DNA from: a virus
Taxonomy: Duplodnaviria > Caudoviricetes
DNA: 64,000 bases
Reading direction: 5' to 3' (one strand)
Virus record (IMG/VR): IMGVR_UViG_3300027715_000011
Coordinates: 1 to 64,000 of that record
The notes beneath the pieces are model-generated. The model did no database searches. It saw nothing but the letters and a program-made list of their open reading frames with translations, and had not been told where the DNA came from. Positions 2,525-34,080 of the stretch are shown here, piece after piece; position 1 is the first letter of the stretch, and each line of letters opens with the position of its first letter. Position numbers and translations under genes: made by a program.

Positions 2525-2752
2525 ATGGAAATTGTTGTATATACTCTACCTATTTGTCCTAACTGCGATAAGTTTAAGCAGTCACTCAATGATCACGCTA
2601 TACCATATACTACTCGTGATCTTGAGGATGATGATGTGAGGATGGAACTTCTTATGGAGTCTGTTACGTTAGTTGAGGCTCCGATCATCTGTATTGATGG
2701 TACATATATGAATAAGGTTGATGCTGAGAAGATGCTCTATGGTTCGAGTTAG
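2525..2752 (+). CDS. nrdH: Glutaredoxin-like NrdH redoxin
   Basis: VVYTLPICPNC (CxxC) and EAPIICIDG; lies between the two nrdD parts. Confidence 0.85.
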   Translation: MEIVVYTLPICPNCDKFKQSLNDHAIPYTTRDLEDDDVRMELLMESVTLVEAPIICIDGTYMNKVDAEKMLYGSS

Positions 2753-4769
2753 AAAAGATGATGGATCGATCGAACAGTTTGACCAGGTAAAGGTCATTGA
2801 GTCGATCAGGAAAGAGACCGGATGCACAGGAAAAGTTATTGATGAGATCGTTGATGAAGTTCATTCTATATTACAAGTTATTAAGATCAACCCGGTAAAC
2901 GGACCATTGATCAGGGAGTTCATCAATACAAAATTTCTTGAACGGGGGATGGATGAATGCAGAAGGAAGTATACCAGGGTCGGTATGCCAGTATATGATG
3001 CTAGACAGACTGATCTTGGAAAGGGAAAGGGTGATAATGCAAATCTAGGTGGCTCTCCTGAAACAGTACATAAGCGAAAAGCCGATCAGCTGAGTAAAGA
3101 GCAGGCTCTTTTAATGCTTCCTGAATATATTGCAGAAGCACATCTCAATGGAGATATTCATATTCATGATATGGAATATGTATCATGCCGAAGATTCTGT
3201 GCAGATTATGATCTGAGATTTGTATTATATTATGGGTTTGTTGGTGATGGATTAGGAGAGCATACATCTACAGCAGGTCCTGCTATGAGGGCAGATGTAG
3301 CAATTCTTCATGCTGTAAAAACATTATGTTCAGGACAGACTATGAAATCTGGCGGGCAGGGTTTTTATAACTTCCTTACGTTTATTGCTCCATATTTCAA
3401 AGACTATACATATAAAGATATTAAGCAGTGTATGCAGTGCTTTATTTATGAAATGAGTCAGAATCTCGTTGCAAGAGGTTCTCAAGTATGTTTCAGTTCT
3501 GTGCAGTTATCACCGTCTGTTCCTAAAATGTGGAGAGATAAACCAGCAGTTTTCAAAGGAAGAATAGGTCCTGAAAACTATGGTGATTTTGAACGTGAGA
3601 ATAGGCTATTATTTAAAGCTTTTATGGAAGTTATGCAAGAAGGTGACTATGTAGGTAAACCATTTTCATTCCCAAAACCTGAGATAGCATTAGAGCCTGA
3701 ATATATGGATACAATGGAGTATGAGGACACTTATGGCGTTGTAGATGAGTATCCAACTATTCGTGAACTTTATTTAGATGCGTTTAAACTTGCTGCAAAA
3801 TACGGCACCCCATATTTTGATAATATGATTCCACCGTATAGGGGAGCAGGAAATGGGATTAGTTGTTTCCAATGTTGTTCCTTCTCCTTCTCAAGCGGCC
3901 CTGAAGGAGATCCAGATTTTAACAATAAATTATACTTTAAAGATGGAAAACACTTCACTATGGGATCAAATCAAGTAATAACATTAAACATACCACGTTA
4001 TGCTTATGATGCCAAGGGAGATTATTCAGTACTTATTGAAGCATGTAAAAAGAATATTGATCTAGCTATTGATATCTTTAAACTGAAACTTCAGTGGATT
4101 CATGAGTGTGAACTTCAGAAGATGTATCCATTCTCTATGCAACGACAAAAGGATTATAATACAGGGAAGACATCTCCACCATTACTTGACTATAATGACT
4201 ATGCAAATACCATAGGTATTGTAGGTATCAACGAAGTATGCGAGATCATGCTTGGTAATCCGATATACGCAGATAAAGAATCTCACATGTTTGCACTCAG
4301 ACTCTGCAATGATCTTAATAAATATTGTAGAGAGAAAGCGAAAGAGTATAATATGAAATTAGCCCTATCTCGTACACCGGCAGAGACCACTGCACAGCGG
4401 TTTGCAGTACTTGACCTGCTAAACTACGGGAACGCCCATAAGCACGTTAAAGGTAATGTGAAAGAGGCCATACGGAAGTATGCCGAGACTGGAGCACGTG
4501 ACTTGCCCATCTATTATACCAACGGTACTCACTGCCCGGTAGATGCGGACATTCCACTGTCTGAAAAGATACGTATTGAGCAGGCATTCTTCCCTATCCT
4601 GGATGGCGGAAATATCTGCAACATCTATCTAGGAGAGAAATACCCTGATCCAGAAGGCCTTATGGACTTTACATTAAAGATCTGTAAGAACACTAATCTG
4701 GGGTACTTTGCATTCTCCCGGGATCTCACCGTCTGCCACCCTGAAATAGCCAGATATCAACCCGAGTAA
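2739..4769 (+). CDS. nrdD: Anaerobic (class III) ribonucleotide reductase, large N-terminal part with ATP cone and no glycyl-radical domain
   Basis: ATP cone VRKDDGSIEQFD, GDIHIHD, TPAETTAQRFA, YYTNGTH, GGNICNIYLGE. The protein ends at FSRDLTVCHPEIARYQPE without RITGY. Confidence 0.9.
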   Translation: MVRVRKDDGSIEQFDQVKVIESIRKETGCTGKVIDEIVDEVHSILQVIKINPVNGPLIREFINTKFLERGMDECRRKYTRVGMPVYDARQTDLGKGKGDNANLGGSPETVHKRKADQLSKEQALLMLPEYIAEAHLNGDIHIHDMEYVSCRRFCADYDLRFVLYYGFVGDGLGEHTSTAGPAMRADVAILHAVKTLCSGQTMKSGGQGFYNFLTFIAPYFKDYTYKDIKQCMQCFIYEMSQNLVARGSQVCFSSVQLSPSVPKMWRDKPAVFKGRIGPENYGDFERENRLLFKAFMEVMQEGDYVGKPFSFPKPEIALEPEYMDTMEYEDTYGVVDEYPTIRELYLDAFKLAAKYGTPYFDNMIPPYRGAGNGISCFQCCSFSFSSGPEGDPDFNNKLYFKDGKHFTMGSNQVITLNIPRYAYDAKGDYSVLIEACKKNIDLAIDIFKLKLQWIHECELQKMYPFSMQRQKDYNTGKTSPPLLDYNDYANTIGIVGINEVCEIMLGNPIYADKESHMFALRLCNDLNKYCREKAKEYNMKLALSRTPAETTAQRFAVLDLLNYGNAHKHVKGNVKEAIRKYAETGARDLPIYYTNGTHCPVDADIPLSEKIRIEQAFFPILDGGNICNIYLGEKYPDPEGLMDFTLKICKNTNLGYFAFSRDLTVCHPEIARYQPE

Positions 4770-5723: not shown

Positions 5724-8126
5724 ATGGAAGATATATGGGTTTTGGAAGGTATCGGCGCTGAAGTCGATCATGACTATAACACGATCATCAAACTGTATAG
5801 CAGAAACTACTATGACCGGTTTGAGACGACTATTCACACTATTAAGAACTATAAACCATACTTTTACATCCCTGCTCATCAGAAACTCCACGCAAAACTA
5901 TTCCCTGAAACGGTGCGTGTTGAAGAGTATGTATATAAAGATGCTATCGGTAGGGAAGTGCGTAAATGTTTTGTAAAGAACCATTATGCCATTAAAAAAC
6001 TGGCAAAAGAGTTTGAGTTCACCTGTATGTCAGATTACCCTATTGACAGGTTTTATCTGACAGATATCAAACTCAAGTATGCGTATACGGTGGATAAAAC
6101 AGGGAAGATCATCCCGAAAGAGGTCAAACATATCCTCTCTCCAAGGGTATTGATGTTTGATATCGAGATCAGATCATCTGACAGGAAACATGTCCCGATG
6201 CCTGATAACCCGATATGGCCGATTGTCTCTGTCCAGATCAAGGACTCATATACCGGTACCGTAAAGGTGTTCACCCATATGGTTCCTCAGCTTCATGATC
6301 CCGAACATGTAGCCTGTGCATCTGAACAGGATCTGTATATCAGGATGATGAACTACATCGAAGAGATGAACCCTGATCTCCTCACCGGGTGGAATACTGG
6401 TGGTTATGATATTCCATATATTTTAGAGAGAGGTAAACAGATTAATATTAATACTTCTCTACTTGGCAGGTATGGTAATACCAGAACATGGTATAATCCA
6501 GATAGTAGACAGTGGCTCAATACTATTCCCGGGCGATCAACACTTGATACCATGCTTGCGTTCAAGAAGTTCACCGCTGGCCAGGCCATGAGAGAATCAT
6601 ACTCATTGAAGGCTATCATCTCTGATAAGGATCTCCTGAAGGATGATGCGTTTGAGTATACCGACTTTGGTCCTATGATCGATGAACTCTTTGAGCAGCA
6701 GAGATGGGAGGAGTTTATCCAGTACTGTAAGTACGATGTTATTGCATTGGATAATATCAACAAGCATCTGGGTCTTATCGACTTTTATGAGAACCTTCGG
6801 CTTGTTACCGGGTGTAAACTGGATGATGTGTTATACAACTCAAAGATCATCGAGATGTTCCTCCTTCATGAAGGGATGAAACCGTTACCGGCAAGAGCAG
6901 CGTATGGAGATGATGAGTCATTTCAGGGCGCTATTGTGGTTGATCCTGTTATCGGGCTCCATGACTGGGTAGGTACATTTGATCTCGCGTCATTATATCC
7001 TAATATCATCTGCGGGTTTAATTTAAGTCCTGATATTGACTTTCTCATTCCAAAGACGTTAAAAAAGACGATGGATCTGCGAGAGGAGATGCGTGCTCTC
7101 CGTAAGAAAGAGCCTGACAACAAGACCGTTGCAAACATGGAGCTCTGTTATAAGTTTCTTAATAACTCGTTCTACGGCGTTATGGGTTTGAAGACGTTCA
7201 GGCTATATAACAAGGATATCGCGTCTACTGTCACCAGGTATGGTAGGGAATTGAATGAGTTTCTACAGGCCTGTGCTAGAAAGAAAGGATATACGGTCGT
7301 GGCGGGCGACACGGATAGTGTGTTTATACGAACTTTAGAAAACGTAACACAGGGTATTACGATGCAAGACTTTCTTAATGACTCTCTTGCTGACTGGTCA
7401 TTTGACCACGGCTCACGTGTTCCGTTTAACTTAAAGTTTGAGAAACTGTACAAGAAACTCCTCATTAAAAAGAAGAAGATGTACTGTGGGCACCTGATAT
7501 GGGAGGAAGGACAGGATCTGTCAGACAAAGAGGAACTTAACTATAAAGGGATCGAACTGAAACGGTCTGATCAGTGTAGAGCGACCAGAGAGACCCTGTA
7601 CAACTTCCTGAAGATCATTCTGGTCAAGGACGATCTCCAGGGAGCGATAAAATACGTGAAGGAGGTATATACGAAAGTCCTTACCGGAAAGATAGACATC
7701 CATGAGGTGGCTATACCAAAGTCTGTCAGATCGGTAAAGGAGAATACTCCATGGGCTCGCGGTATACAGAACACTCAGGCATACCTGGATTACAATCTCC
7801 CAGACGGCCAGAAGCCACGTCTCATTTACATTAAACCTGGAATACCACGGTTAGCCCTTGTTGAACGTGATATATATGACGAGAACGGGTATCTCAAGCG
7901 TGACAGTAACGGTCGTCCGGTTACTGAGATGGTAGAAGAGACGATCGTCATGACCGAGTTCTGTATTGATGAGGAGGTTGACGTCAGTAAGATCATCAAT
8001 CTTATCGACTGGGATCTCACTGCCAAGAAGACGATAGAGATGAAGATGTCTGGATACTTTGAGGTACTTGATATGGACTTTATGAACTGTATGAACGGTC
8101 AGCAGACTATAGATATGTGGTTTTAG
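5724..8126 (+). CDS. polB: Family B DNA polymerase
   Basis: ExoI FDIEI, ExoII GWNTGGYD, ExoIII YCKYDV, motif A DLASLYPNI, motif B K...NSFYG, motif C GDTDS. Confidence 0.97.
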   Translation: MEDIWVLEGIGAEVDHDYNTIIKLYSRNYYDRFETTIHTIKNYKPYFYIPAHQKLHAKLFPETVRVEEYVYKDAIGREVRKCFVKNHYAIKKLAKEFEFTCMSDYPIDRFYLTDIKLKYAYTVDKTGKIIPKEVKHILSPRVLMFDIEIRSSDRKHVPMPDNPIWPIVSVQIKDSYTGTVKVFTHMVPQLHDPEHVACASEQDLYIRMMNYIEEMNPDLLTGWNTGGYDIPYILERGKQININTSLLGRYGNTRTWYNPDSRQWLNTIPGRSTLDTMLAFKKFTAGQAMRESYSLKAIISDKDLLKDDAFEYTDFGPMIDELFEQQRWEEFIQYCKYDVIALDNINKHLGLIDFYENLRLVTGCKLDDVLYNSKIIEMFLLHEGMKPLPARAAYGDDESFQGAIVVDPVIGLHDWVGTFDLASLYPNIICGFNLSPDIDFLIPKTLKKTMDLREEMRALRKKEPDNKTVANMELCYKFLNNSFYGVMGLKTFRLYNKDIASTVTRYGRELNEFLQACARKKGYTVVAGDTDSVFIRTLENVTQGITMQDFLNDSLADWSFDHGSRVPFNLKFEKLYKKLLIKKKKMYCGHLIWEEGQDLSDKEELNYKGIELKRSDQCRATRETLYNFLKIILVKDDLQGAIKYVKEVYTKVLTGKIDIHEVAIPKSVRSVKENTPWARGIQNTQAYLDYNLPDGQKPRLIYIKPGIPRLALVERDIYDENGYLKRDSNGRPVTEMVEETIVMTEFCIDEEVDVSKIINLIDWDLTAKKTIEMKMSGYFEVLDMDFMNCMNGQQTIDMWF

Positions 8127-9618: not shown

Positions 9619-9888
9619 ATGCTTAATTATGACGTAAATTACCATTTATCATGCTCTAATAATATCGTCACCGATGATGGATGGGATGTTGACATGTATG
9701 AACTCTCAAAACCTCATACATCTGCACTGAAGAAGTTCTGTAAAGAGAACCATATCAGATATTCTGCAGAACCGTTACCAAATAAGATCAATCCAGATGG
9801 CCCGGCCACCGATGTATATATGATCGGAATGAGTCTGCGTGACAAGAATAAGCTCATGAAGTTTATTGAAGATACAATTAATATTTAA
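9619..9888 (+). CDS. Hypothetical protein
   Basis: ORF with ATG at 9619 after a T-rich spacer. Confidence 0.5.
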   Translation: MLNYDVNYHLSCSNNIVTDDGWDVDMYELSKPHTSALKKFCKENHIRYSAEPLPNKINPDGPATDVYMIGMSLRDKNKLMKFIEDTINI

Positions 9889-9913
9889 ATACTCTTTTCT
9901 CTTTTTATATTGT

Positions 9914-10831
9914 ATGCATCGGGTGCCGCTCATACAGAAGATAACGCTGGATCTCACGTCAAACAGATTAAAAATAATAGATCTATCAGAAGCAGCCAAT
10001 AAGGTATATCTTGATCCCGGACAGGCTGCACCTCAGGGTACTGCAGTTCAGACCGGCCCTCATGGAGGAAAGTTCTACATATCTCAGATGATGGGGAAAC
10101 TTGTGCGTGAAGCCGGTGAGTTTAAAAAGAAGTCAGCCGAGGAGATGAAGGATCCAAATCACGGGAAGGAGGTCATCCATGACGACCCATATAATATCCA
10201 GGGATGGGATATCGCTACCGTTGATCCACGACTTGATACTGATATAAGTAAGTCATACCCGTCTGCTATTGTAAAGCGTGCAACCATACAGCGGCTTGAA
10301 CAGATTAAGAGCGTTGAACCTGAAATGACTCAGACTATGCAGGATATAGCACAGGTCTGTAAAGGTACCATGGCAGGACTTGACTTCAGACTCAAATCCC
10401 CGGAGTCTACATTACGTAAAGTATATGAGAAGATCAATGAGTGCCCATACTATGATCCTGAAAATGCTGTAAAGAACCTGAAGGATCTGGTCAGATATAC
10501 CATCCTGTTTGAGCCTGACACCTATACCGATGGGGTGAAAGGTGCTATTGATCTCATGGGGAAGCATGGGTTCGAACCGGTAGCGGTAAAGAACTACTGG
10601 GGATCTCCCGGGTATCATGGGATCAATTGTAACTTCAAGAATAAAGATGGGGTTGTGTTTGAGCTCCAGTTCCATACGCCACAGTCAATAGATATCAAAG
10701 AGGCCAAATCCCATCCATTATATGAGAAGTTACGCACATCGAAAGATCCGAAAGTTATTAATGAGATTAGCAACCAAATATCACAGTTGTGGGAGTCTGT
10801 AACCAAACCATCAGGAGCTGAATCAATATGA
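9914..10831 (+). CDS. RelA/SpoT-like (small alarmone synthetase-type) toxin domain with N-terminal shared motif
   Basis: C-terminal RLKSPES.LRK, DLVRYT, GYHGIN and ELQFHT match the synthetase motifs; N-terminus carries KVYLDPGQAAPQGTAVQTGPHGGKFY. Confidence 0.8.
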   Translation: MHRVPLIQKITLDLTSNRLKIIDLSEAANKVYLDPGQAAPQGTAVQTGPHGGKFYISQMMGKLVREAGEFKKKSAEEMKDPNHGKEVIHDDPYNIQGWDIATVDPRLDTDISKSYPSAIVKRATIQRLEQIKSVEPEMTQTMQDIAQVCKGTMAGLDFRLKSPESTLRKVYEKINECPYYDPENAVKNLKDLVRYTILFEPDTYTDGVKGAIDLMGKHGFEPVAVKNYWGSPGYHGINCNFKNKDGVVFELQFHTPQSIDIKEAKSHPLYEKLRTSKDPKVINEISNQISQLWESVTKPSGAESI

Positions 10832-11085
10832 TCACGTATTACGCAGGATATGAGGAGGGTGCTCCACAGGATATGGAACACCTCATCACGGTTGTCAAGT
10901 TTGATCCTGACGGTGAGTATGCATGTACCAGGTATGACTGGAGGGTAAAGCAGTTTGTATGGGATGAGTTTACACCTAAATATATGATGCATGCTGCTCC
11001 TATGGCTCCTATAGGAGAGGAAGATGTGCAGAATTACATCTCATATATCGATAATCGTGGCGCAGCGGTCCACCCTGAACAGTAA
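10828..11085 (+). CDS. Probable cognate immunity protein
   Basis: 85-aa acidic/aromatic ORF coupled to the toxin stop by an ATGA overlap; C-terminal IGEEDVQNYI. Confidence 0.55.
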   Translation: MITYYAGYEEGAPQDMEHLITVVKFDPDGEYACTRYDWRVKQFVWDEFTPKYMMHAAPMAPIGEEDVQNYISYIDNRGAAVHPEQ

Positions 11086-11117: not shown

Positions 11118-11849
11118 ATGTGTACAATCAATCTTGGCGGTCTTGTTTCATTATCTACGGTTGACTGGACAGGTTTAGCATCATGCGTTGTCTTCTTCAG
11201 GGGCTGTTCTGCACAATGCTGGTACTGCCATAACAAAGAGATCTGCACCGGTGAAGATATCAGGGATATCCATGAGATTGAGAAGTTTATCAGATCTGCA
11301 TCGTTTATGATATCAGGAGTGGTGTTCTCTGGGGGAGAATGCACCGAGCAGCCAGATGCATTGTACAAACTCTGCCGTGTATCACGATCTATCGGCCTTA
11401 AAACCAGCATCCATACAAACGGATTACAGCCTGATGTTATTCAGTACCTTATCCGTAAGAACCTTATAGACCATATATCCCTTGATATAAAGACTGCACC
11501 ATTACGGTATGAATGGCTTACACAGGTTGTAGATTCAGAAGAGTTGATACGCGAGTCTATGAAGATCTGTTTCAATGCCAGGAATAAGATCGATATCGAG
11601 TGTATCACTACTATGGTTCCTGATATGCAGCAATGGTTATCAAGTATAAGAGCGTGTATTCCTGAAGATGTGAAATGGGTGTTACAACAGTCCCGGGTAG
11701 CAAGTAAGGTGTATCCGGTAGGGATGCTTCTTGAACTTGGTGAACAGTATCATACGTATATTAGATCAGGAGAGACCGGTGAGATCTCCCCTGAACAGAT
11801 CAGCAACCTACCTCACAAAATACCAGGGCTTCCGGTTCTGGAGCAGTAA
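11118..11849 (+). CDS. nrdG: Anaerobic RNR activating radical-SAM enzyme
   Basis: SLSTVDWTG...VVFFRGCSAQCWYCHN (CxxxCxxC), VVFSGGE, IHTNG, SLDIKT. Confidence 0.9.
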   Translation: MCTINLGGLVSLSTVDWTGLASCVVFFRGCSAQCWYCHNKEICTGEDIRDIHEIEKFIRSASFMISGVVFSGGECTEQPDALYKLCRVSRSIGLKTSIHTNGLQPDVIQYLIRKNLIDHISLDIKTAPLRYEWLTQVVDSEELIRESMKICFNARNKIDIECITTMVPDMQQWLSSIRACIPEDVKWVLQQSRVASKVYPVGMLLELGEQYHTYIRSGETGEISPEQISNLPHKIPGLPVLEQ

Positions 11850-12035: not shown

Positions 12036-13349
12036 GTGAACTACCCCTCCCTGCAACATACTGTTGCGAGAATGGGGCTTCCTGCTTCACGGATCGATGC
12101 ATTCTTGCAAGCAACAATGTCTGACTCAATCTCCACAGGCTCACCGGGCAGATCCTGCCCTGTATTCTGTTTTAGTAACGCAAATCGTTTAATATTGATA
12201 GCAGCATTGATGTCCCGATCATGAACAGATCCACAATCAGGACAAATCCACTCTCGTTCTTTAAGGGTTAATCCTTTGTTGTGGTATCCACATCTACTGC
12301 ATATTTTAGATGATGGATCAAACCTACCGATAGTTAACAAGGTCTTTCCAAACTTCTCACATTTATAAGTGAGCATAGTTCTAAACTCTGACCAAGAGGC
12401 ATCAGCAATATGTTTAGCAAGTTTATGATTCTTCAGCATACCAGATACATTCAGATCTTCAATTGCGATTGCTTGGTTCTCGCTTACTAATTTAAAAGAA
12501 AGTTTGTGCAAGAAGTCTGATCTTTGGTTCGCTATGTCTTCATGACACTTAGCTAATTTACGAATTGCTTTCTTTCGATTATTTGATCCTTTTACTTTTC
12601 TGGATACTGATTGCTGCAGTTTCTTGAGTTTTGCTGAAGTCTTTTTCAGAATTCTTGGGTTTTCAATCTTGGTTCCATCAGATAGAATTGCAAAATGGGT
12701 TAACCCTACATCTATCCCTACAGTAGTATCAAATGTAAATGGTCCTAGTTCAGGAGTTGGTTTTCCATCATCTACCAGAACCGATATAAAATACTTACCA
12801 GTAATAGTTCGTGACACTGTACAGGTTTTAATTTCACCTGCAAAATATCTGTGAAGTTTACACCTTACTTTACCTATCTTTGGAAGTTGAACTGAACCTT
12901 TAATCCAATCTATCTTTACACCTTGAGGGAACTGGAAGGACTGAATAGAATTCTTTTTAGATTTGAACTTTGGAAACCCTTTCTTTTCCTTAAAGAACTT
13001 AGTGAATGCATTATCAAGATTGCGGGAAGCCATTTGCAATGCTTGAGAATGTACTTCTGATAGGAAAGGATACTCAATCTTCAAAGCAGGTAACATCTTG
13101 TTCAAAGCAAAACATGATAATGTTTTGCTGTGCTCTGCGTAATGTTTGATCTTCTTCTCAAGAAACAAGTTGTACACAAACCTACAGCATCCGATGTGTT
13201 TCTCAATACTTTCTTTCTGAACCGTATTGGGATACAACCTATACTTGTAGGCATGTAACATACTAATTAATTATACTTACAGATATTTATAGTTATATGT
13301 AAGCAGCAATCATCTCCTCCCTGTCACCGAGGAAGGGTCTTATTGAGCA
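12036..13349 (-). mobile_element. tnpB-only IS200/IS605-family (IS1341-like) element 1
   Basis: Right end GAAGCCCC...GGGGTAGTTCAC ends at 12036. Left-end hairpin at about 13308-13340, preceded on the minus strand by TTTAT (13354-13350). Confidence 0.85.
12041..13261 (-). CDS. tnpB: TnpB RNA-guided endonuclease
   Basis: AYKYRLYP HTH, VGIDVGL, IAIEDL, Zn ribbon CSRCG/CPDCG, DRDINAAINI; RuvC residues intact. Confidence 0.95.
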   Translation of the reverse strand: MLHAYKYRLYPNTVQKESIEKHIGCCRFVYNLFLEKKIKHYAEHSKTLSCFALNKMLPALKIEYPFLSEVHSQALQMASRNLDNAFTKFFKEKKGFPKFKSKKNSIQSFQFPQGVKIDWIKGSVQLPKIGKVRCKLHRYFAGEIKTCTVSRTITGKYFISVLVDDGKPTPELGPFTFDTTVGIDVGLTHFAILSDGTKIENPRILKKTSAKLKKLQQSVSRKVKGSNNRKKAIRKLAKCHEDIANQRSDFLHKLSFKLVSENQAIAIEDLNVSGMLKNHKLAKHIADASWSEFRTMLTYKCEKFGKTLLTIGRFDPSSKICSRCGYHNKGLTLKEREWICPDCGSVHDRDINAAINIKRFALLKQNTGQDLPGEPVEIESDIVACKNASIREAGSPILATVCCREG

Positions 13350-14134: not shown

Positions 14135-15148
14135 ATGAGAAAGTTAGCATCGGTTCAGAAGATATTATCAGTAGATCCACATCCTAATGCTGATACTCTT
14201 GATATTGCTACCATAGAGGGATGGCATTGTATTGTTAAGAAGGGTGACTTTAATGCCGGGGATCTCTGTATATTCTTTGAAGTAGATTCAGTTCTTCCTG
14301 ATACGAATCCTGTATTTGCATTTCTTGAGAAGTATCATTACCGCATCAGAACTCAGAAGCTCAGAGGATTTATAAGCCAGGGATTATGTATGCCCGTCTC
14401 TCTCATTCCTGATGAACTTGTTGAGGAAGGATCTGATGTCACTGATGTTCTTGGTGTAACCAAGTATGAGCCGCCTATCCATGAGAGTTTACGTGGACTG
14501 GTAAAAGGTAATTTCCCTGCGTTTATGCACAAAACGGATGAGATCCGCGTCCAAAATATTCAAGGCGTTCTCAACCGGTATAAAGGAGAGAACTTTACTA
14601 TATCAGAGAAGCTTGATGGAATGAGCTTCACATGCTACCTCCATGATAACGAGTTTGGTATCTGCTCCCGTAATATGGATCTTAAACCTGATGAGAATAA
14701 TAGTATGTGGAAGACTGCACGATCCTATGACTATGAGAGTATACTCAGGCATTATTACGAGATGCATGGTGTTGAACTTGCATTCCAAGGTGAGATCATT
14801 GGGTATAACATTGCAAAGAACCCGTATAAACTCCCATCCGGAGAACACAGGATCTATCTCTTCAACATCTTTGATATCACCAACCAAAAGTACTGGAGCA
14901 ATGTTGAAGTGCTGAAGTTCTGCCTTGAGAACTGCATCCTCATGGTTCCGATCATTGATATGGAGTTTCAGCTTATTACTGACATCGATGCACTGTCTGA
15001 TATGGCTGACGGGAAGTCTATGATCAACCATGATGTGAGACGTGAAGGCCTGGTGTTCAGACCGATAAAAGAGATGTATGATTATGAGATAGGAAGACTG
15101 TCATTTAAGTCGGTGAGCAAAGAATATCTGCTCAAACACGACTCTTAA
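14135..15148 (+). CDS. ATP-dependent RNA ligase, Rnl2/DRB0094 type with N-terminal tRNA-binding-like OB fold
   Basis: MRKLASVQKI...HPNAD.L, motif I EKLDGMS, FQGEIIG, REGLVFR, FKSVSKEYLL. Confidence 0.9.
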   Translation: MRKLASVQKILSVDPHPNADTLDIATIEGWHCIVKKGDFNAGDLCIFFEVDSVLPDTNPVFAFLEKYHYRIRTQKLRGFISQGLCMPVSLIPDELVEEGSDVTDVLGVTKYEPPIHESLRGLVKGNFPAFMHKTDEIRVQNIQGVLNRYKGENFTISEKLDGMSFTCYLHDNEFGICSRNMDLKPDENNSMWKTARSYDYESILRHYYEMHGVELAFQGEIIGYNIAKNPYKLPSGEHRIYLFNIFDITNQKYWSNVEVLKFCLENCILMVPIIDMEFQLITDIDALSDMADGKSMINHDVRREGLVFRPIKEMYDYEIGRLSFKSVSKEYLLKHDS

Positions 15149-15468: not shown

Positions 15469-16860
15469 TTAATCTTCTGTATATCTGAGTTCATCAGAAG
15501 TAGTCTCATCACCACCCTCATCTTCATCTTTGAAATCATCTTCTTTTATATCAGACGGGGCGCCGGGCCATCTCTCATCTATAGCGGTAAACTTCAAGTC
15601 ATTCAATGATATTGGCTCAAAATCAACCTCTTCTGTTTTTGGATCGCAGGTTACGATACTCCCATTGGATCCCATATAGAGAACATATGGCTTGAGATAA
15701 TCAGGAACCCGTGACATGTCATTCCCGGGAGCAGCCTTTAATATATCTTTTATTCTATCAAGAGGGAATCCTTCTTCACTATAAAATAATGCAGCTGAAT
15801 TAGCAGTTTTTGCATTAGGTTTCTTCTTAAATGCTGCATCCATTACAGGTTTGGTTGCTGCGTAGATCTTGTCATTAAACTCCTGATATGTGAGCAGTTT
15901 ACCGGTATCATTGTTTATAACCTCTCCTACATCGGTAAATGATATCGTATCTATAATTGGAGATATTGCTTTACTCAATGCGTTAGATGAATCATTAAAC
16001 ATTCCCTGTATAGTAGCAAATACGGTAATAGGTTTTGTTTTATCAGATGTACTAAGATCACCTATCTCACCCATCTCTTCAGTAATTCCATCAACAATAT
16101 TCTTGTAATGGTTTCTTGGTATTGAGTTTATTCTGTTCTCGATATTGAGATCGTCATTTCCTTTTATATACGTATAGCCTGGTTTTAGTACACTCCGTAT
16201 ATTCTTATATTTTGATATACTCTCTTTATATCTTTCTAATACAGGCATTGCTTTATCATATTTGGGATCATCAACGATATTTTCAATGCATATGTTTATA
16301 TTATTTGTATAATTAGAAACGATCCCCTCAAGTAATTTCATACCTTGCATATCATTGATACCGATCTGCTGCATTAATTGTTCGGTATCATTTGGATTCT
16401 TCTTCAGCTCATCGATGAGGTATTGTGCATGTGCCTGTTTCATTGCATCCTTTTTACTGGCTACATCCATCCAGTCAGGAGCGTCATACCTATTCCAGTG
16501 ATCATACTCATCAAGTTTGTCAATATCATGAGGATCTTTTAATGCTTTTATATGGTCAGGTATCTCGGTTGGTAATGAGGCATGAGTTGCTTTACCGCTA
16601 TATGATTTATCATAATATGGACTGTTATGATCAGGATTCTCTTTAACTTTCTTTAAATATTCTAATCTATCATTGAGGATATCCTGTCTTGTATTTAGAG
16701 TGAGATCAGGTTTACTACTGTATGGGATCTCATAGAACTCCCCTCCATGAGGGCCGGTCTGAACGTTCACGCCTTTTGGCGCTTTATGATACTCATCCAG
16801 ATAGATCTTATGCATAGCAAGATCCAGAACAATCTTCCTCATGACGCGAATATAATCCAT
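15469..16860 (-). CDS. Hypothetical 463-aa protein with N-terminal shared motif
   Basis: VLDLAMHKIYLDEYHKAPKGVNVQTGPHGGEFY at the N-terminus; acidic C-terminal tail. Confidence 0.8.
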   Translation of the reverse strand: MDYIRVMRKIVLDLAMHKIYLDEYHKAPKGVNVQTGPHGGEFYEIPYSSKPDLTLNTRQDILNDRLEYLKKVKENPDHNSPYYDKSYSGKATHASLPTEIPDHIKALKDPHDIDKLDEYDHWNRYDAPDWMDVASKKDAMKQAHAQYLIDELKKNPNDTEQLMQQIGINDMQGMKLLEGIVSNYTNNINICIENIVDDPKYDKAMPVLERYKESISKYKNIRSVLKPGYTYIKGNDDLNIENRINSIPRNHYKNIVDGITEEMGEIGDLSTSDKTKPITVFATIQGMFNDSSNALSKAISPIIDTISFTDVGEVINNDTGKLLTYQEFNDKIYAATKPVMDAAFKKKPNAKTANSAALFYSEEGFPLDRIKDILKAAPGNDMSRVPDYLKPYVLYMGSNGSIVTCDPKTEEVDFEPISLNDLKFTAIDERWPGAPSDIKEDDFKDEDEGGDETTSDELRYTED

Positions 16861-16884: not shown

Positions 16885-17619
16885 TTAAAATACTGGATCT
16901 GGTGTGATAGGTACAATAGCATTAAAGATAACATCAACCTGGTTTGAGATGGTTGATAACTGGGGAAGATATACTCGCATGTACTTCCGCCTGATCGTAC
17001 CATTGATCTGCACCGGTCTCTTCAGGATATAGGTACCTCTCTTTTCAGCAGGGGTGAGATCATTCCAGTTGATCCCTTTTTGATACAGCATCTCATGGAG
17101 ATCAGGTATCTTCTTGTATGCCAGTTCCTTTGGAGAGTAATGAGCCCGGGCAACCATCTGAATTGAGTTCTTTGCAGCATCAGACTCCCTCCATATGAGT
17201 ACATTAACAGCCTCCATCAGGGTTGGAACCTGGAATGCTCGACAGTCGAACCATCCCAGTTTCTGCCTACCCATATACTGATTGAATTTTGCAGATGCTA
17301 ATCCTGCCAGTGTTGAGACGATCTTGTGTACCTTTCCATCAAAGTAGATCTGCTTCTCATGATCATCAGAGTACAGAATAAGGGTGATCTCATCAGACTG
17401 TGTATACGCCATCACCGCACATGACTCTTCTGCAACGTCCATAGCAGTTCTGATCATGGCATCCATGAACCCTACATCAAATGGCCGGTCAAGTCCCCTG
17501 GTATATGAGTGGAATGACTTCCCATCTATTCGTACGATTACTGGAAGCCGCGGGATGAACTTCTGATCTGTTGTTACTGACTCGTATCGTTTGATCCGAT
17601 CACCGAACGCATCCTTCAT
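16885..17619 (-). CDS. thg1: Thg1-like 3'-5' polymerase (tRNA-His guanylyltransferase family)
   Basis: VIVRIDGKSFHSYT..L.RPFD, AYTQSDEITL, FDCRAF, WRE.DA.KNSI. Confidence 0.95.
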   Translation of the reverse strand: MKDAFGDRIKRYESVTTDQKFIPRLPVIVRIDGKSFHSYTRGLDRPFDVGFMDAMIRTAMDVAEESCAVMAYTQSDEITLILYSDDHEKQIYFDGKVHKIVSTLAGLASAKFNQYMGRQKLGWFDCRAFQVPTLMEAVNVLIWRESDAAKNSIQMVARAHYSPKELAYKKIPDLHEMLYQKGINWNDLTPAEKRGTYILKRPVQINGTIRRKYMRVYLPQLSTISNQVDVIFNAIVPITPDPVF

Positions 17620-29266: not shown

Positions 29267-30451
29267 TTAACTTGATTTGAAATTGTAAATGGGCTTAATA
29301 ATATCTATGATATCTACAGTATCTCCAATATACTTAGTGATCTCTTCCATTGGCTTGTATACAAATGGGCTTTCATCAATGGTGTTTTGATTTACTGATG
29401 TGGTAAAGATACCTTCCATAGACTTTTTGAAATCATCCAATTTGAATGTGCGCTTGGCTTCTTTACGACCCATAACTCTCCCTGCACCATGTGGAGCACT
29501 ATAATTCCAGTCAGGATTACCTTTACCTACTGCAATAATAGCACCATCACGCATATTCATTGGGATGATAACTTTCTCACCATTTTGCGCAGAAATTGCT
29601 CCTTTACGAAGGATCATGTGTTCAGTATCGATATAATTATGAACAGTCTCAAATTGGCTATCTACTGAAATACCAGGAACATTTCTAATGATCTCTTGTA
29701 ACATAGATTCCCGGTTGAGATGTGCATATATCTGTAACACCTTCATATCATGAATATAATCATCAAATGATACACCATCCAAAAACGCAAGATCATCGAC
29801 CAATGGATCTATTGTACTTAACTTTTCACCAATGAAAGATTTATCAATTGTATTATTAATAATCTCTGTTCTAATAGTGCTTTTTGTTTCACGGCACTCT
29901 TTAATTGCTAATTTCTGATAATATTCAGCAACCTGCTTCCCAATATTACGAGATCCTGAATGAATAATGAGATACACATCACCATTTTTATCAGAATCTA
30001 ATTCAATCATGTGGTTCCCTCCACCGAGAGTTCCAATTTGATAATAAGCTGATTCTAACCGTTTAAGATTATTTGCACACTTTAAATCACTTAAATTGAT
30101 ACCATTAGCAATAGGATGTATTGTCTTACGAGAATTAAATCCAGATGGTACACTTCTTCTCACCTGGTGATCAAATTCAGCAAAATCAATCGGTTTCTCA
30201 ATATTCAACTTTGCACAGATCACCCCACATGAAACATCCACACCTACCAAGTTTGGAGTGATTCTATCATGAATGGTCATGGTTGTACCAATTGTACATC
30301 CATTTCCTTCATGACAATCAGGCATCACTTTAATATTAGATTCGCAAGCAGCTTCATTATTACATAAATTTGTAATTTGTGCAATAGCACCATCTTCTAC
30401 CAAATCCGAATAGATCACGGCATTGGTATACTTACCATTAATTTCAATCAT
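29267..30451 (-). CDS. rtcB: RtcB 3'-phosphate RNA ligase
   Basis: VMPDCH.G.G..IG, VGVDVSCG, GTLGGGNH.IE, IHSGSRN.G, SAPHGAGR, ESPFVYK. Confidence 0.96.
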   Translation of the reverse strand: MIEINGKYTNAVIYSDLVEDGAIAQITNLCNNEAACESNIKVMPDCHEGNGCTIGTTMTIHDRITPNLVGVDVSCGVICAKLNIEKPIDFAEFDHQVRRSVPSGFNSRKTIHPIANGINLSDLKCANNLKRLESAYYQIGTLGGGNHMIELDSDKNGDVYLIIHSGSRNIGKQVAEYYQKLAIKECRETKSTIRTEIINNTIDKSFIGEKLSTIDPLVDDLAFLDGVSFDDYIHDMKVLQIYAHLNRESMLQEIIRNVPGISVDSQFETVHNYIDTEHMILRKGAISAQNGEKVIIPMNMRDGAIIAVGKGNPDWNYSAPHGAGRVMGRKEAKRTFKLDDFKKSMEGIFTTSVNQNTIDESPFVYKPMEEITKYIGDTVDIIDIIKPIYNFKSS

Positions 30452-30458
30452 GATATCC

Positions 30459-30695
30459 TTACATACCTGATTTATACTCTTTCACAAACCAGTCCTTTGC
30501 ACATTTCGATGGAGGTTGTTCCTGATACTCAGCATCTACTACAATAAACTCGCGAATGAGATATACAGAATTTCCGGTAGCATTCGCTATACCTTGAATT
30601 CGATTCTGATCTACCTCGTTATCTGTATCATACGATCCTTTCTCAAAGAATCCTTCCTTCTTTGACCAAAGTGCAGCATTCTCATACACTACCAT
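30459..30695 (-). CDS. Hypothetical protein
   Basis: 78-aa ORF from ATG 30695, between tRNA-Met and rtcB. Confidence 0.5.
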   Translation of the reverse strand: MVVYENAALWSKKEGFFEKGSYDTDNEVDQNRIQGIANATGNSVYLIREFIVVDAEYQEQPPSKCAKDWFVKEYKSGM

Positions 30696-30730
30696 ATATA
30701 TAATATGGAGAGAAAAGAAGATAAAAGTTA

Positions 30731-30804
30731 TGGGCGATATCGGGTTCGAACCGATGATCTCTCGGGTATGAGCCGAGTGCATTAACCAACTATGCTAAAC
30801 GCCC
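30731..30804 (-). tRNA. tRNA with CAT anticodon (elongator Met or Ile2)
   Basis: GGGCGTT/ATCGCCC acceptor, CTCGG-CTCATAC-CCGAG, T loop TTCGAAC; lacks initiator features. Confidence 0.88.
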
Positions 30805-30992
30805 GACAAGTTCCCCTTACCCACCCTCGTTTGATCGTAATCATCGCATTGGTATTAACATTAAATTATACACATTACACAAATAACAATATGGAACTGA
30901 ATTGTAAATTATGATTTGGTTCCTTCAATATCCAATTAATCATTGTGTGGTTTATGCAATCGCCTTACTTACAAACTACCAAACTTGTTTAA

Positions 30993-31286
30993 TTAATCAT
31001 GAATGATCCTGATCCCATACTGCTCCGCTACAGTATGTTCAATACAGCAACCCCTAGCCTTATTCCATCCTTCCATGAAATATGCAGCATCTGATTGTGC
31101 TAGCATCTGTATTGATTTCCCTAGGTACCATGCTCCCATTGCAGATGTTTCAGGAGCGTCTTCAGCAATGATAGAGTCAATTACCTCATCTCCATTATCA
31201 GTAATGAATTTAACTACTTGATCTCGTTAATACCTGATCTGTTCATTTGACATCCCTAACATTGGTTGACTGATGAATACTTTCAT
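30993..31286 (-). pseudogene. DUF4406-like (nucleoside deoxyribosyltransferase-fold) gene with an in-frame TAA at codon 20
   Basis: Reads MKVFISQPMLGMSNEQIRY*RDQVV...YLGKSIQMLAQSDAAYFMEGWNKARGCCIEH; stop at 31227-31229; absent from the ORF track. Confidence 0.75.
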
Positions 31287-31287
31287 A

Positions 31288-31752
31288 TTATCCCTCGATC
31301 AGTTCTGTTTTCCAGTTCATTTCCTGGAGTTTTGTATCAATAGTTCGGAATTCTGATGCTACTTTATCTGCTTTATCTCGGTAATCAGAAACATTTATCG
31401 TTGTAATAGTTCTAATTTCAGTTCTTGAGTACCTTGATATTCCGGCATTTGATGCCTGATTTGCAATACTTGAGTAGAATTCATGTTCTGATTTAAGGCG
31501 ATCCCGGTGAGCAATCGCATCTGATATAGACATTGCATCATCGAATGCTGTCTGTGAGTTGATTTTATTGATACATCTAACCAGATATTCCATCCTGGAT
31601 AGCACTGACCTGATATCAGTTAAGATCTCAAGTGGTTTTTCAGATGGTTCTTCACCTTCCTGCACAACTACACAACTTGACATTCTACTCTTTAATTCGT
31701 TGAACTTCTTTTGTGCATCTGCACGTTCAATCAATGCTTCGGCAAGTCTCAT
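31288..31752 (-). CDS. DIP1984-family helical protein
   Basis: MRLAEALIERAD.QKK...L..R, VQEGEEPSE.P, IN..N, R.IDT.LQE.NW..EL. Confidence 0.8.
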   Translation of the reverse strand: MRLAEALIERADAQKKFNELKSRMSSCVVVQEGEEPSEKPLEILTDIRSVLSRMEYLVRCINKINSQTAFDDAMSISDAIAHRDRLKSEHEFYSSIANQASNAGISRYSRTEIRTITTINVSDYRDKADKVASEFRTIDTKLQEMNWKTELIEG

Positions 31753-31767
31753 TATACACCTTTGAGA

Positions 31768-31840
31768 AGCCAGATGTGAGATTCGGACTCACGATCTCCT
31801 GTTTACAGGACAGGTGCCTTAACCACTAGGCTAATCTGGC
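31768..31840 (-). tRNA. trnT: tRNA-Thr(TGT) with C33 and C55
   Basis: GCCAGAT/ATCTGGC acceptor, U73, CCTGT-CCTGTAA-ACAGG, T loop TCCGAAT. Confidence 0.85.
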
Positions 31841-31974
31841 AAATTGAGAGTATTATACAGACTTTTATTCCTCTCATATCCATGATCGACGATAACATTA
31901 CTAACAAGCGGATATTACACAGTGCCCTCCTTAAACACATAAGTAACTCGTTAGCATGCTTTTTCTGCATGGAA

Positions 31975-32050
31975 TCCGGTTGCTCGGATTTGAACCGAGG
32001 GTAATACAGGATCTACAGTCCCGCCCGTTCGACCACTCTGGCACAACCGG
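31975..32050 (-). tRNA. trnY: tRNA-Tyr(GTA), archaeal type
   Basis: C1:G72 acceptor CCGGTTG/CAACCGG, A73, loop CTGTAGA, no long variable arm. Confidence 0.9.
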
Positions 32051-32067
32051 TACATTATGTTTCTCTG

Positions 32068-32135
32068 GTGACTGCTCCCACGACTAAAGTCATGGGCTTC
32101 TGGGATTCTATACCGTGCTATACAGCCCTAGAGCA
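32068..32135 (-). mobile_element. Orphan IS200/IS605 right end / omegaRNA-like remnant
   Basis: Minus strand ...GCTCTAGGGCTGTATAGCACGGTATAGAATCCCAGAAGCCCATGACTTTAGTCGTGGGAGCAGTCAC, collinear with the 3' end of the tnpB at 33420-33498. Confidence 0.75.
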
Positions 32136-32256
32136 AGGCAGACATGTCTGCCAGAAACTATCAGTACAAACAGATGATCCAGTTTCTTCCACTTTGATCT
32201 TAAGGTGTGTCCAATCTGTTATACATATGTTGGATCTAATAAAAGATAAACTTTAT

Positions 32257-33498
32257 GCCATTCATCTCACTTCTTTAGATGTGAGATGAATTGAGTAGAT
32301 AGAGATAAGTATAAATATTAAGCGGTACAATTATAATGTGCAATGTCGCTTAAAGCGTATAAGTTCAGAATATATCCTACCAAGGCGCAAGAGACTGTGT
32401 TAGAACAGACTCTTGAGACGTGCCGTAGAATATATAACAGGACATTAGCTTTAAGAAAAGATGAGTATGAAGCAACAAAAACCTCTATTTCTCTGTTTGA
32501 AACCAACAAACAGTTGACTCAGTGGAAGAAACAAAACCCGTTTTATTTATCTAAAGTACATTCTCAGGTATTGCAGAATGTTCAGGTTAGAGTAGATTTA
32601 GCATTTCAAGGTTTCTTCCGTAGAGTCAAGATAGATCCAACTAATGCAGGGTATCCACGGTTTAAGGGACGCGGTAGATATAACTCTATCACGTATCCTC
32701 AACCCGGTACTGCATTCAGATTAAGATCTGGGTACATTGAACTCTCGAAGATCGGTAAAGTTAAGGTTAAACAGCACAGAGCAGTAGAAGGTAACCCCAA
32801 AACCTGCACGGTTTCAAAGACATGTACCGGTAAATGGTTTATTTCTCTCGCCTGTGAACAAGAACCAAAACAGAAATCTGAACGAGAGTTTAAAGCAGTT
32901 GGTATTGATCTAGGAGTTAGAACTCTTTGCACTTTATCGAATGGTGATGAAGTTCAGCCGCCACGGTTCCTTATGCAGGATGAGCCTATCCTTAAAAAAG
33001 CACAACAAAAGTTAAGTGCTGCTGAAAAAGGGTCTAAACTTAGGAAGAAGTGTAAGAAGGTAGTTGCTCATATTCATGAACGAATAGCAAACAAACGGAA
33101 AGATTTCTGTGATAAGTTAAGTCTATCTTTAGTTCAGACCTACTCTTTTATTGCGTTTGAAGAACTTGAGATTGATGAAATGGTGCAGAGATCTGATTGT
33201 TATATTGAGAAACATATTCTGGATGCTGCATGGAACCAGTTAGTCAGTAAAACTCAGTGCAAAGCGGAAGATGCTGGTACAACGGTTATATTGGTTAACC
33301 CACGCAACACCACTAAAATGTGTTCTCAGTGTGGGACGTTAGTACCAAAAGATAGGAATGAAACGGTACATGACTGTCCTGCGTGTGGTCTCTCGTTAGG
33401 AAGAGACCATAACGCTGCAATCAACATACTCAGACTGGGGTTGCAGTCTGTGGGTTCAATCCCTAGATGCCCGTCACTTCAGTGATGGGAGTAATCAC
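32257..33498 (+). mobile_element. tnpB-only IS200/IS605-family element 2, inserted in the tRNA cluster
   Basis: TTTAT at 32252-56, then left-end hairpin ATTCATCTCAC/GTGAGATGAAT; right end ...GGGAGTAATCAC at 33498. Confidence 0.85.
32343..33485 (+). CDS. tnpB: TnpB RNA-guided endonuclease
   Basis: KAYKFRIYP, VGIDLGV, IAFEEL, CSQCG/CPACG, RDHNAAINI. Confidence 0.95.
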   Translation: MSLKAYKFRIYPTKAQETVLEQTLETCRRIYNRTLALRKDEYEATKTSISLFETNKQLTQWKKQNPFYLSKVHSQVLQNVQVRVDLAFQGFFRRVKIDPTNAGYPRFKGRGRYNSITYPQPGTAFRLRSGYIELSKIGKVKVKQHRAVEGNPKTCTVSKTCTGKWFISLACEQEPKQKSEREFKAVGIDLGVRTLCTLSNGDEVQPPRFLMQDEPILKKAQQKLSAAEKGSKLRKKCKKVVAHIHERIANKRKDFCDKLSLSLVQTYSFIAFEELEIDEMVQRSDCYIEKHILDAAWNQLVSKTQCKAEDAGTTVILVNPRNTTKMCSQCGTLVPKDRNETVHDCPACGLSLGRDHNAAINILRLGLQSVGSIPRCPSLQ

Positions 33499-33563
33499 GG
33501 ACACCCTCATATGGAGCAATTGATCGCTTAACGCTGATTCTCCATAGTTTCTGATACCAGAGA

Positions 33564-33633
33564 TGGACCACGTAGGAGTTGAACCTACATCACGAGTTTT
33601 GGAAACTCGTTTCCTGCCATTGGAGAATGATCC
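33564..33633 (-). tRNA. trnW: tRNA-Trp(CCA)
   Basis: GGATCAT/GTGGTCC acceptor, CGAGT-TTCCAAA-ACTCG, GTAGG-TTCAACT-CCTAC; compact D arm. Confidence 0.82.
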
Positions 33634-33771
33634 TATGAATCAGGCCTTGGGCCGAATTATTAGAGGTTTGTCCCGAAGCAGGCTCCTTTGCACCATGCTG
33701 TTGATCAAAATCCCATGACCGCTATCTGATCCATTATTATAATTGACTATAATAGTTATAAATCTTTTGTT

Positions 33772-34080
33772 TTACCAATTCACCTTCTCAATTGGATACC
33801 ATGTTCTATTTGCAGGATTTCTATGCCATTTCTGTATAGCCTCTTCAGGTGTTTTAAATTCTCCTGTCTGGCATCCACACCCATCATGATCTTTACAGTT
33901 TACGTAATAGTAATACTCGATATGACAATCCCCATATTCGATACACCAAACCTCTGATGGGCCATTACATAATGGACAACCAAGAAGAGCCTCTTTTAAT
34001 TCTATACAACAATGAGGACATACTGCAGTATCATCTGTTTCGATTGTATACCTACATTTAGGGCAGATTAATGTCTTCAT
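33772..34080 (-). CDS. Lar-like Zn-finger protein
   Basis: CPKC, CPHC and CPLCNG...C....C....G.FKTPEEAIQKW. Confidence 0.55.
   Translation of the reverse strand: MKTLICPKCRYTIETDDTAVCPHCCIELKEALLGCPLCNGPSEVWCIEYGDCHIEYYYYVNCKDHDGCGCQTGEFKTPEEAIQKWHRNPANRTWYPIEKVNW

Follow-up and report, generated by a model that had tools for sequence, protein, structure and literature searches.

What does a RelA/SpoT-type synthetase do in a tailed virus that probably infects archaea, with a second, very small gene coupled to its end? The question is raised by two overlapping forward-strand genes in a 64,000-nucleotide stretch of DNA, hereafter the window, which is positions 1-64,000 of a 76,278-base IMG/VR record (IMGVR_UViG_3300027715_000011; 53% complete according to CheckV). 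The first gene, at 9914-10831, encodes a tagged small alarmone synthetase of the toxic type (toxSAS/EAS); the second, at 10828-11085, encodes an 85-residue immunity-like protein that appears to be a remote relative of IapK. From sequence comparison and structure modelling we propose, with a probability of about 0.6, that they encode a toxin and its immunity protein, in the manner of Apk2 and IapK, in a large tailed virus whose hosts are probably Methanomicrobiales-type methanogens. Characterised Apk/EAS enzymes use ATP as the donor of a pyrophosphate group that they add, at very high rates, to the 3'-OH of ATP/ADP and/or GTP/GDP, and they kill by draining the nucleotide pool. Our literature search found no RelA/SpoT-type synthetase described in an archaeal virus.

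The synthetase and its closest relatives

The synthetase gene is an open frame of 305 codons plus a stop. Its probable start is the ATG at 9914; an in-frame TTG lies upstream at 9866, and the ATG is preferred because the N-termini of four relatives begin at the aligned methionine. In an AlphaFold2 (AF2) model of the whole protein, with a mean predicted local distance difference test (pLDDT) of 76, three parts can be told apart. Residues 1-57 (9914-10084), the N-terminal tag, are partly ordered, as a helix followed by short strands. Residues 58-112 (10085-10249) form a flexible linker, with a pLDDT of 31-54 over residues 58-110 and a sequence that is conserved in the closest relative only. The SYNTH (RelA/SpoT synthetase) domain occupies residues 113-305 (10250-10828), as supported by invariant alignment columns and by the Foldseek match to 8vx3, the structure of SaEAS from Streptomyces albidoflavus; order begins at about residue 113, and pLDDT exceeds 90 across residues 130-305.

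The synthetase motifs that an initial annotation, made from the sequence alone, had picked out (RLKS..S..RK, D..RY, GYHG and ELQFHT) are all present. They read RLKSPESTLRK (residues 159-169, 10388-10420), DLVRYT (residues 191-196, 10484-10501), GYHGIN (residues 233-238, 10610-10627) and ELQFHT (residues 250-255, 10661-10678), and they make up a complete catalytic set: R159, K161, S165 and K169 of syn1, D191 of syn2, the syn3 loop from G233 to N238, and E250 and Q252 of syn4. Among 15 homologues, K161, S165, K169, D191, R194-Y195-T196, E250 and Q252-T255 are invariant. In the alignment to 8vx3, D191 falls on D121 of SaEAS, and D121A is the inactivating mutation in the SaEAS crystal construct (PMC12691689).

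Could these motifs be chance matches? That a single-sequence search, a family profile and a structure comparison all agree on 8vx3 argues that they are not. Searched against the PDB with phmmer, the toxin matched 8vx3 with an E-value of 1.4e-19 and Tas1, from Pseudomonas aeruginosa, with 2e-3; a profile of the 15-sequence family brought these to 1e-41 and 2.8e-4, respectively. For the AF2 model, Foldseek found 8vx3 to be the nearest solved structure (TM-score 0.87, root-mean-square deviation (rmsd) 1.6 Å), followed by Tas1 (0.60), RelP/RelQ (about 0.5-0.55) and Rel (about 0.5), with a probability of 1.00 for all. FaRel2 and CapRel (8pu1, 7ztb) reached a TM-score of about 0.36, and the PDB search returned no sequence match to the CapRel, FaRel2 or PhRel subfamilies at E-values up to 10. 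The domain is nearest to SaEAS, Apk2 and Tas1 by sequence, profile and structure, with CapRel and FaRel2 far lower.

The link to Apk2 comes from phages. A tblastn search of the synthetase against 50,697 deposited phage records matched 128 of them, all bacterial, including the Apk2 phages of Streptococcus pneumoniae, Pasteurella multocida and Mannheimia haemolytica; among the matches listed, the homology falls inside MuF 'head morphogenesis' genes, at 33-39% identity. The RYT, GxN and aromatic-H variants of the toxin match the published Apk2 signature, which is unlike that of the (p)ppGpp-type RelA/SpoT homologues (PMC12226406). The Apk2 domains of those three phages make only (p)ppApp (PMC12226406); SaEAS yields both (p)ppApp and (p)ppGpp, and VpEAS and AaEAS yield (p)ppGpp only (PMC12691689). 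Family models point in the same direction: residues 109-305 match the last 200 positions of the NCBIfam XopAD model (E-value 2.8e-26), and the PHROG 'head morphogenesis' and 'minor head protein' families match the toxin through their C-terminal ends. Pfam, NCBIfam and PHROGs return no hydrolase (HD) domain, as had been annotated, and Pfam and PHROGs return no Phage_Mu_F match; residues 1-112 consist of the tag and the disordered linker instead. To judge from sequence and model, then, the protein is an Apk/EAS-clade enzyme, intact and with a synthetase domain only, and its placing in a toxic class of RelA/SpoT-type enzymes seems apt, given its identity to the Apk2 domains of MuF phage toxins.

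The coupled 85-residue protein

The second gene starts at the ATG of an ATGA that overlaps the stop codon of the toxin, which is the coupling originally described. A GGAG at 10814-10817, read directly inside the toxin gene 10 nucleotides upstream of this ATG, may be its ribosome-binding site. In a related virus known from a 66.5-kb record (G403, also L001), an 85-residue gene that is 61% identical follows a 74%-identical toxin, with the identical four-nucleotide overlap. Among 1.84 billion representative proteins, a profile of the 85-residue protein brought up just three other members (79-86 residues), two of which adjoin tagged synthetases (37-38% identity), directly downstream of them, while the third lies on a 548-bp contig. 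The family therefore amounts to four or five clusters in that collection, and every member with enough context follows a tagged synthetase; the pair of genes is present in the window, in L001/L034, in L031 and in L002/L033. We regard it as a very small, previously undescribed immunity subfamily. A word-index search with P0002 alone returned only the self-match. A 1,506-residue NACHT/WD40-type protein (P0037), which the immunity profile reached with an E-value of 1.9e-4, was dismissed as a repeat or composition artefact.

The connection with IapK is made through the wider set of viral loci. In IMG/VR, a small open reading frame (ORF) of about 47-94 residues lies within a few bases after the synthetase at 43 of the 80 best loci (about two thirds), and 29 of these ORFs form one family, to which IapK (69-72 residues) belongs (hmmsearch, about 1e-5). 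Aligned with this family plus IapK, the 85-residue family scored 92.7% in hhalign, with an E-value of 4.2e-7 over 67 columns, which is near its full length; the score was 82% when IapK was left out of the phage family, and 10.9% only against the two IapK sequences alone, as befits a remote relation.

Structure gives a similar picture. The AF2 model of the 85-residue protein is confident (pLDDT 92.7), and neither Foldseek nor a sequence profile found anything significant for it in the PDB. In an exhaustive structure alignment, Tis1 (6ox6_B) came second of 48,161 chains, a weak match (Z 3.7, rmsd 3.4 Å over 62 residues) whose rank is tied with unrelated rows and which is a lead only. The ESM Atlas shows only unnamed bacterial proteins of 74-86 residues with a similar shape (TM-score 0.67-0.74).

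The two proteins are predicted to bind. When residues 113-305 of the toxin were modelled together with the 85-residue protein, the interface score (ipSAE) was 0.83, 0.80 and 0.83, against 0.01 for the best control; the mark that this complex attains is reached by 58 of 80 solved complexes and by 2 of 110 mismatched pairs. At least 96% of the contacts agree between runs, and the pLDDT of the partner is at least 91. The predicted interface includes toxin residues 190-191, and with them D191, the loop at 231-234, residue 248 and E250, and in this model the small protein would cover the acceptor-nucleotide side of the active site. Residues 175-181 and 270-290 of the toxin are also among the predicted contacts, and on the inhibitor these fall at residues 9-14, 45-58 and 74-82. 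IapK and Tis1 are reported to occlude the same side of their synthetases (PMC12226406). With Tas1-Tis1 among the solved complexes, the ipSAE may in part reflect likeness to it, and the prediction supports, without showing, the binding of the 85-residue protein to the toxin. Its co-occurrence with the synthetase in relatives, its remote homology to IapK and its predicted position over the catalytic pocket all speak for the label of immunity-like gene that it had been given.

Is the pair a member of the Apk2 family, or only similar to it? In the Apk2-IapK-Aph1 system of temperate phages, where the toxin is a MuF protein (PMC12226406), the synthetase is 33-39% identical to the one described here and has the same RYT, GxN and aromatic-H variants; a small gene (69-85 residues across the two systems) follows directly downstream, is remotely homologous and is predicted to block the acceptor site; and both modules are encoded by tailed viruses. 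The differences lie around this core. A 57-residue tag and a disordered linker stand here in place of the MuF domain; Aph1, an HD hydrolase that provides a second, enzymatic immunity gene there, was not found here; the Apk2 gene comes after the portal gene (terminase-portal-Apk2), whereas ours lies between the genes of a family B DNA polymerase (PolB) and NrdG; and the host is bacterial there and probably archaeal here. In a quick tree, the four tagged synthetases form a group of their own, apart from Apk2. Since it has no MuF domain and no Aph1 and is not in a head module, we set the pair apart from the Apk2/MuF family: on sequence and model evidence it appears to work like Apk2-IapK and to be related to it in both components, as a variant and not as a member.

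Other systems share parts of this design. SaEAS (PMC12691689), the closest structure, belongs to the same family of SYNTH domains with a swappable N-terminal delivery module; it has a Sec signal peptide and no immunity gene and works outside the cell, whereas the toxin of the window has no signal peptide, is coupled to an inhibitor and is viral. Tas1 (Apk1)-Tis1, of the P. aeruginosa type VI secretion system (6ox6), has the same fold and likewise combines delivery of a (p)ppApp synthetase with a small inhibitor that covers the active site, but its carrier is a PAAR/type VI one, its sequence similarity is very low and its host is bacterial. The XopAD/skwp type III effectors of plant-pathogenic bacteria have a C-terminal Rel-like domain of the same SYNTH clade; our toxin scores 91 bits against the 2000-bit cut-off of that family, has no SKWP repeats and no type III secretion context, and has the domain alone in common with them. 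What is particular to the present pair is its setting in a probable methanogen virus, the short shared tag that takes the place of a carrier domain, its position in a replication module and its small immunity subfamily.

The N-terminal tag and its carriers

What is the tag for? It consists of a helix, M..I..K(I/L).(L/V)DL, followed by (I/V)Y(L/V)..P.G.....G..GG.(F/W/Y)Y, and it is supported by the alignment of relatives, by tblastn and by a non-circular hidden Markov model (HMM), made from the tags of the four synthetase proteins only and searched against the 334 ORFs of the 76-kb record. This HMM retrieved a 463-residue protein encoded on the reverse strand at 15469-16860 (E-value 2.5e-11) and a 206-residue protein at 51133-51753 on the forward strand (2.1e-8). 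For the former, tblastn also matches toxin residues 22-57 to the N-terminus (E-value 5.2e-8, 56% identity). A weaker copy of the tag core lies inside the 801-residue ORF at 45652-48057, at 45913-46005 on the forward strand, with an E-value of 1.9e-3 (3.5e-6 with a profile that already includes it). The N-terminus of the 645-residue ORF at 48255-50192 shows by eye, and with the inclusive profile, a doubtful degenerate tag at 48255-48353 (forward strand), which the non-circular HMM did not retrieve among the 334 ORFs. The sharing of the tag, as first annotated, is thus firm for the proteins at 15469-16860 and 51133-51753 and weak for those at 45652-48057 and 48255-50192, the latter being doubtful. 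Beyond the tag, the sequences of the carrier proteins are mutually unrelated.

A further carrier was found in a 404-residue protein (P0040) with the tag at its N-terminus, 62% identical over the core, and a MuF domain at its C-terminal end. Among 71 distinct viral synthetase homologues, the tag occurs only in the close relative; most of the other viral homologues in IMG/VR exceed it in length, a MuF domain being confirmed in some, and are followed by a small ORF. In the related 66.5-kb record the tag is on the synthetase only, and that record stops before the region homologous to the tagged cluster of the window. Two other leads were dropped. The back-translated core QTGPHGG gave 22 matches in IMG/VR, apparently by chance, mostly short frames in GC-rich DNA and none with the tag around the core; and the glycine-rich G.GR.G..GGS linker of three bacterial homologues, considered as an equivalent of the tag, is found in 0 of the 71 viral homologues. 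The 206-residue carrier has an identical match (P0038) on a 178,064-base contig, and this contig may represent the genome of the virus of the window more completely.

In the EAS family, the SYNTH domain is joined to interchangeable N-terminal delivery modules, namely Sec, type VII secretion system LXG, type III secretion system XopAD, MuF, extracellular contractile injection system and PAAR (PMC12691689). By analogy, the tag and disordered linker may most simply be read as another such module, and the sharing of the tag suggests a common delivery or packaging address; as the tag also heads the MuF protein P0040, its destination would be the capsid interior. Proteins encoded at 43164-44018, 44018-45652 and 50231-50827 have in common a C-terminal zincin-like domain (HExxH; phrog_33618, and 'minor head protein' phrog_19443) and are interleaved with the tag-bearing ORFs that begin at 45652, 48255 and 51133, so that the whole looks like an effector or internal-protein cluster. 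Short terminal peptides that load unrelated cargo through a flexible linker, several per genome, are known from the capsid-targeting sequences of the phage T4 internal proteins and from encapsulin cargo. They have no sequence relation to the tag, and packaging of the tagged proteins would be a parallel drawn from them. We put forward only tentatively, as less probable than not, the general proposal that a lineage of large tailed methanogen viruses uses the 45-57-residue leader as a portable address for virion loading and ejection, by which several unrelated effectors are loaded, among them an alarmone-synthetase toxin that wrecks purine pools in hosts without alarmone signalling. Such a system would be the counterpart, split and built on a tag, of the MuF and polyvalent-protein fusions of bacteria.

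How might the pair act? By the example of its characterised relatives, which are extremely fast and lethal (PMC12691689, PMC12226406), the free toxin would make (p)ppApp and/or (p)ppGpp from the purine nucleotides of the cell and arrest it. In a host order nearly devoid of RelA/SpoT genes, the effect of the toxin would come from depleted nucleotides or inhibited enzymes and not from alarmone signalling. The 85-residue inhibitor would keep it silent in the producing cell. More speculatively, the tag and linker may replace the MuF carrier domain of bacterial homologues, the tag sending the toxin to a destination, most likely inside the virion, that at least two other tagged proteins share. A toxin sent there would enter the next cell free of its inhibitor, and might serve in early host shut-off or against cells or viruses without the immunity gene. 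Toxicity, product, neutralisation and role, be it host takeover or a weapon between viruses, are what we infer here.

Setting, host and competing explanations

The pair lies in the gene order NrdD (anaerobic ribonucleotide reductase, 2718-4769), a 119-residue ORF, PolB (5724-8126), three small ORFs, toxin, 85-residue gene, an NrdG-like radical-SAM activating enzyme immediately downstream (11118-11849), TnpB, HNH and an Rnl2-like ligase; NrdD, PolB and NrdG are on the forward strand. That the virus is a large tailed one is argued from the related 66.5-kb record, which runs collinear with the window as far as about 38.5 kb and whose preceding 31 kb encode numerous tail-fibre and baseplate-wedge paralogues. 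Beside the pair there is no Aph1-type HD hydrolase, and PF13328 (HD_4) had no match in the 76-kb record or in its 66.5-kb relative, both of which are incomplete. In that relative, a GNAT-type acetyltransferase gene (G403 41723-42340, L001 9009-9626), absent from the window, stands between the immunity gene and NrdG. On metagenome contigs with P0008 (L003-L005), within a contractile-tail or baseplate gene cluster, a 370-residue radical-SAM protein is directly followed by a 340-residue homologous synthetase and by a coupled ORF of at least 107 residues; this is a further arrangement that is untagged and non-MuF.

Several points weigh against a delivered toxin-immunity pair of methanogen viruses. 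The Pfam RelA_SpoT model (PF04607) gives the toxin only 16.2 bits (E-value 0.013), under its gathering cut-off of 27 bits; as MuF-fused phage relatives also fall short of it, with 19.3 and 26.1 bits, the model appears to under-detect this clade. Product specificity is not readable from the motifs, since members of the clade make (p)ppApp, (p)ppGpp or both. PolB and NrdG flank the pair, in a replication and nucleotide-metabolism module away from portal and head genes, more distant relatives (about 37% identity) again have NrdD just upstream, and such a placement suits a packaged role no better than an intracellular or metabolic one. In the 76-kb record no capsid, portal or terminase gene was identified, which leaves the tag without structural context. 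Profile searches found the tag in only a handful of sequences, and the other tagged proteins have no recognisable family or function in Pfam, PHROGs or the Atlas. The host assignment, finally, leans on a mobile TnpB and on a PolB of 25% identity.

The competing explanation that best withstands the evidence is an unpackaged intracellular toxin-antitoxin module, in which the inhibitor would keep the synthetase silent in the infected cell until a competing virus or a host insult released the synthetase and so aborted the competitor's replication, and the tag would serve localisation, a common partner or turnover. The RelA/SpoT-like gp29 of mycobacteriophage Phrann with its partner gp30, and CapRel, have reportedly been proposed to abort competitor replication in this way. 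The position of the pair among early/middle-type replication and nucleotide genes, and not among head genes, favours such a module; the tight coupling and the predicted active-site block fit it equally well; and the pair seems to be a virus-only module, as 401 genomes searched in the order of the Methanoculleus reference gave no match to the synthetase and immunity profiles. The same result means that the genomes searched offer no provirus or orphan-immunity link to a host. We nevertheless think a toxin-antitoxin module improbable: the synthetase groups with delivered toxins (Apk2 on MuF, Tas1 on the type VI system, SaEAS via Sec), the toxin-antitoxin enzymes CapRel, FaRel2 and PhRel gave no sequence match and a Foldseek TM-score of about 0.36, and the tag and disordered linker common to unrelated proteins and to a MuF protein would go unexplained.

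Could the target be RNA? Like CapRel, FaRel2 and PhRel2, the enzyme would then pyrophosphorylate tRNA 3'-CCA ends and block translation, and the tRNA-repair set of the virus would protect its own. The initial annotation had left both substrates open. The virus does have a Thg1-like enzyme, RtcB, an HD-containing CCA-adding enzyme, Rnl1- and Rnl2-like ligases and seven tRNAs, and tRNA-modifying toxSAS enzymes have the same fold. By sequence, profile and structure, however, the nearest relatives are the nucleotide-acting SaEAS, Apk2 and Tas1 and not CapRel, FaRel2 or PhRel, which is why nucleotide pools are favoured as the target; the RYT, GxN and FH signature is of the Apk type, and the predicted inhibitor fills the small acceptor pocket, as IapK and Tis1 do. 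An action on tRNA is, in our estimate, quite unlikely.

The RNA and tRNA repair kit is unusually complete in its own right. It is encoded at 14135-15148, 16885-17619 (reverse strand), 27492-28379 (reverse), 29267-30451 (reverse), 37701-39086 and 57658-58737, and consists, as listed, of an Rnl2-like ligase with a PHA02142 OB domain, a Thg1-like enzyme, an ATP-dependent DNA ligase, RtcB, a CCA-adding enzyme of the bacterial HD-containing type and a T4 Rnl1-like ligase. The seven tRNA genes of the window lie at 28945-34670; ARAGORN reports among its predictions a 78-nucleotide tRNA-Cys with the unusual anticodon ACA (29076-29153, reverse strand), adjoining a normal tRNA-Cys(GCA). A DHH/DHHA1 phosphoesterase (62532-63572), two calcineurin-like phosphoesterases (25554-26246 and 39095-39880) and a guanylate-kinase-like protein (25045-25566) could act on unusual nucleotides, 3'-phosphorylated ones included.

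Is the virus archaeal, as was first annotated? A Methanomicrobiales-like archaeal host is probable from the relatives of TnpB and the affinities of PolB, which is short of proof. The TnpB gene at 12041-13261 on the reverse strand (IS200/IS605 OrfB, Cas12f-like; a second gene of this type lies at 32343-33485 on the forward strand) has relatives 61-66% identical in Methanoculleus, Methanofollis and other Methanomicrobiales, and of its 23 relatives most come from Methanomicrobiales or other methanogens (60-68% identity). In deposited viruses, the PolB matches with the widest coverage of the query belong to haloarchaeal tailed viruses (about 25% identity). A TATA-like box, TTTAAATA, read directly at 9884-9891 on the forward strand and centred about 26 nucleotides upstream of the toxin ATG, would fit an archaeal promoter with a leaderless or near-leaderless transcript, a point of low weight. 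The alternative is a bacterial host and an ordinary phage Apk2-like module with an unusual carrier. On its side are the deposited phage records with a homologous domain, 128 of 128 of which are bacterial, the bacterial type of the CCA-adding enzyme, and the best TnpB match (79% identity), which is on an 11-kb contig (L008, CAZCND010000024.1) of a metagenome-assembled genome binned as 'Candidatus Saccharibacteria'. That contig may be a binning error, of viral or methanogen origin, and the remaining TnpB relatives and the PolB point to archaea; we give a bacterial host little credit.

A stringent response is held to be lacking in most archaea, as the initial annotation stated, and this agrees with what we found in the order of the Methanoculleus reference, where RelA_SpoT scores above its cut-off in 1 of 151 genomes. 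The sole positive genome has a 315-residue frame (G113:C133:50288-50677, L136). Some methanogens do have RelA/SpoT genes, since Methanosarcina acetivorans also matches in the control set.

Least likely of all is a regulated metabolic enzyme, whose controlled (p)ppApp or (p)ppGpp would inhibit purine and energy enzymes of the host and redirect nucleotides to viral DNA, with the 85-residue protein as a regulatory subunit: NrdD/NrdG synteny kept even in relatives of about 37% identity and the guanylate kinase and thymidylate-synthase-like genes elsewhere in the window would suit it, but characterised members of the clade are lethal and act with extreme speed (PMC12691689, PMC12226406), the partner has a dedicated immunity protein as a relative, and the tag is left without a role.

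Research on bacterial phages and secretion systems is actively concerned with alarmone-synthetase toxins and their small immunity proteins. If the reading of the pair as a toxin and its immunity protein is true, an example from a probable methanogen virus, in a host order nearly without RelA/SpoT genes, would mean that such enzymes are weapons independent of the stringent response. The succession of tag, linker and toxin also offers a simple three-part test bed for the addressing of cargo by tailed archaeal viruses. If the tag is a packaging signal, it would be, to our knowledge, the first described for these viruses, and could be used to load proteins into particles. If it is not, the pair would still be a compact, probably archaeal-virus example of the Apk2-IapK kind, with a previously undescribed immunity subfamily.

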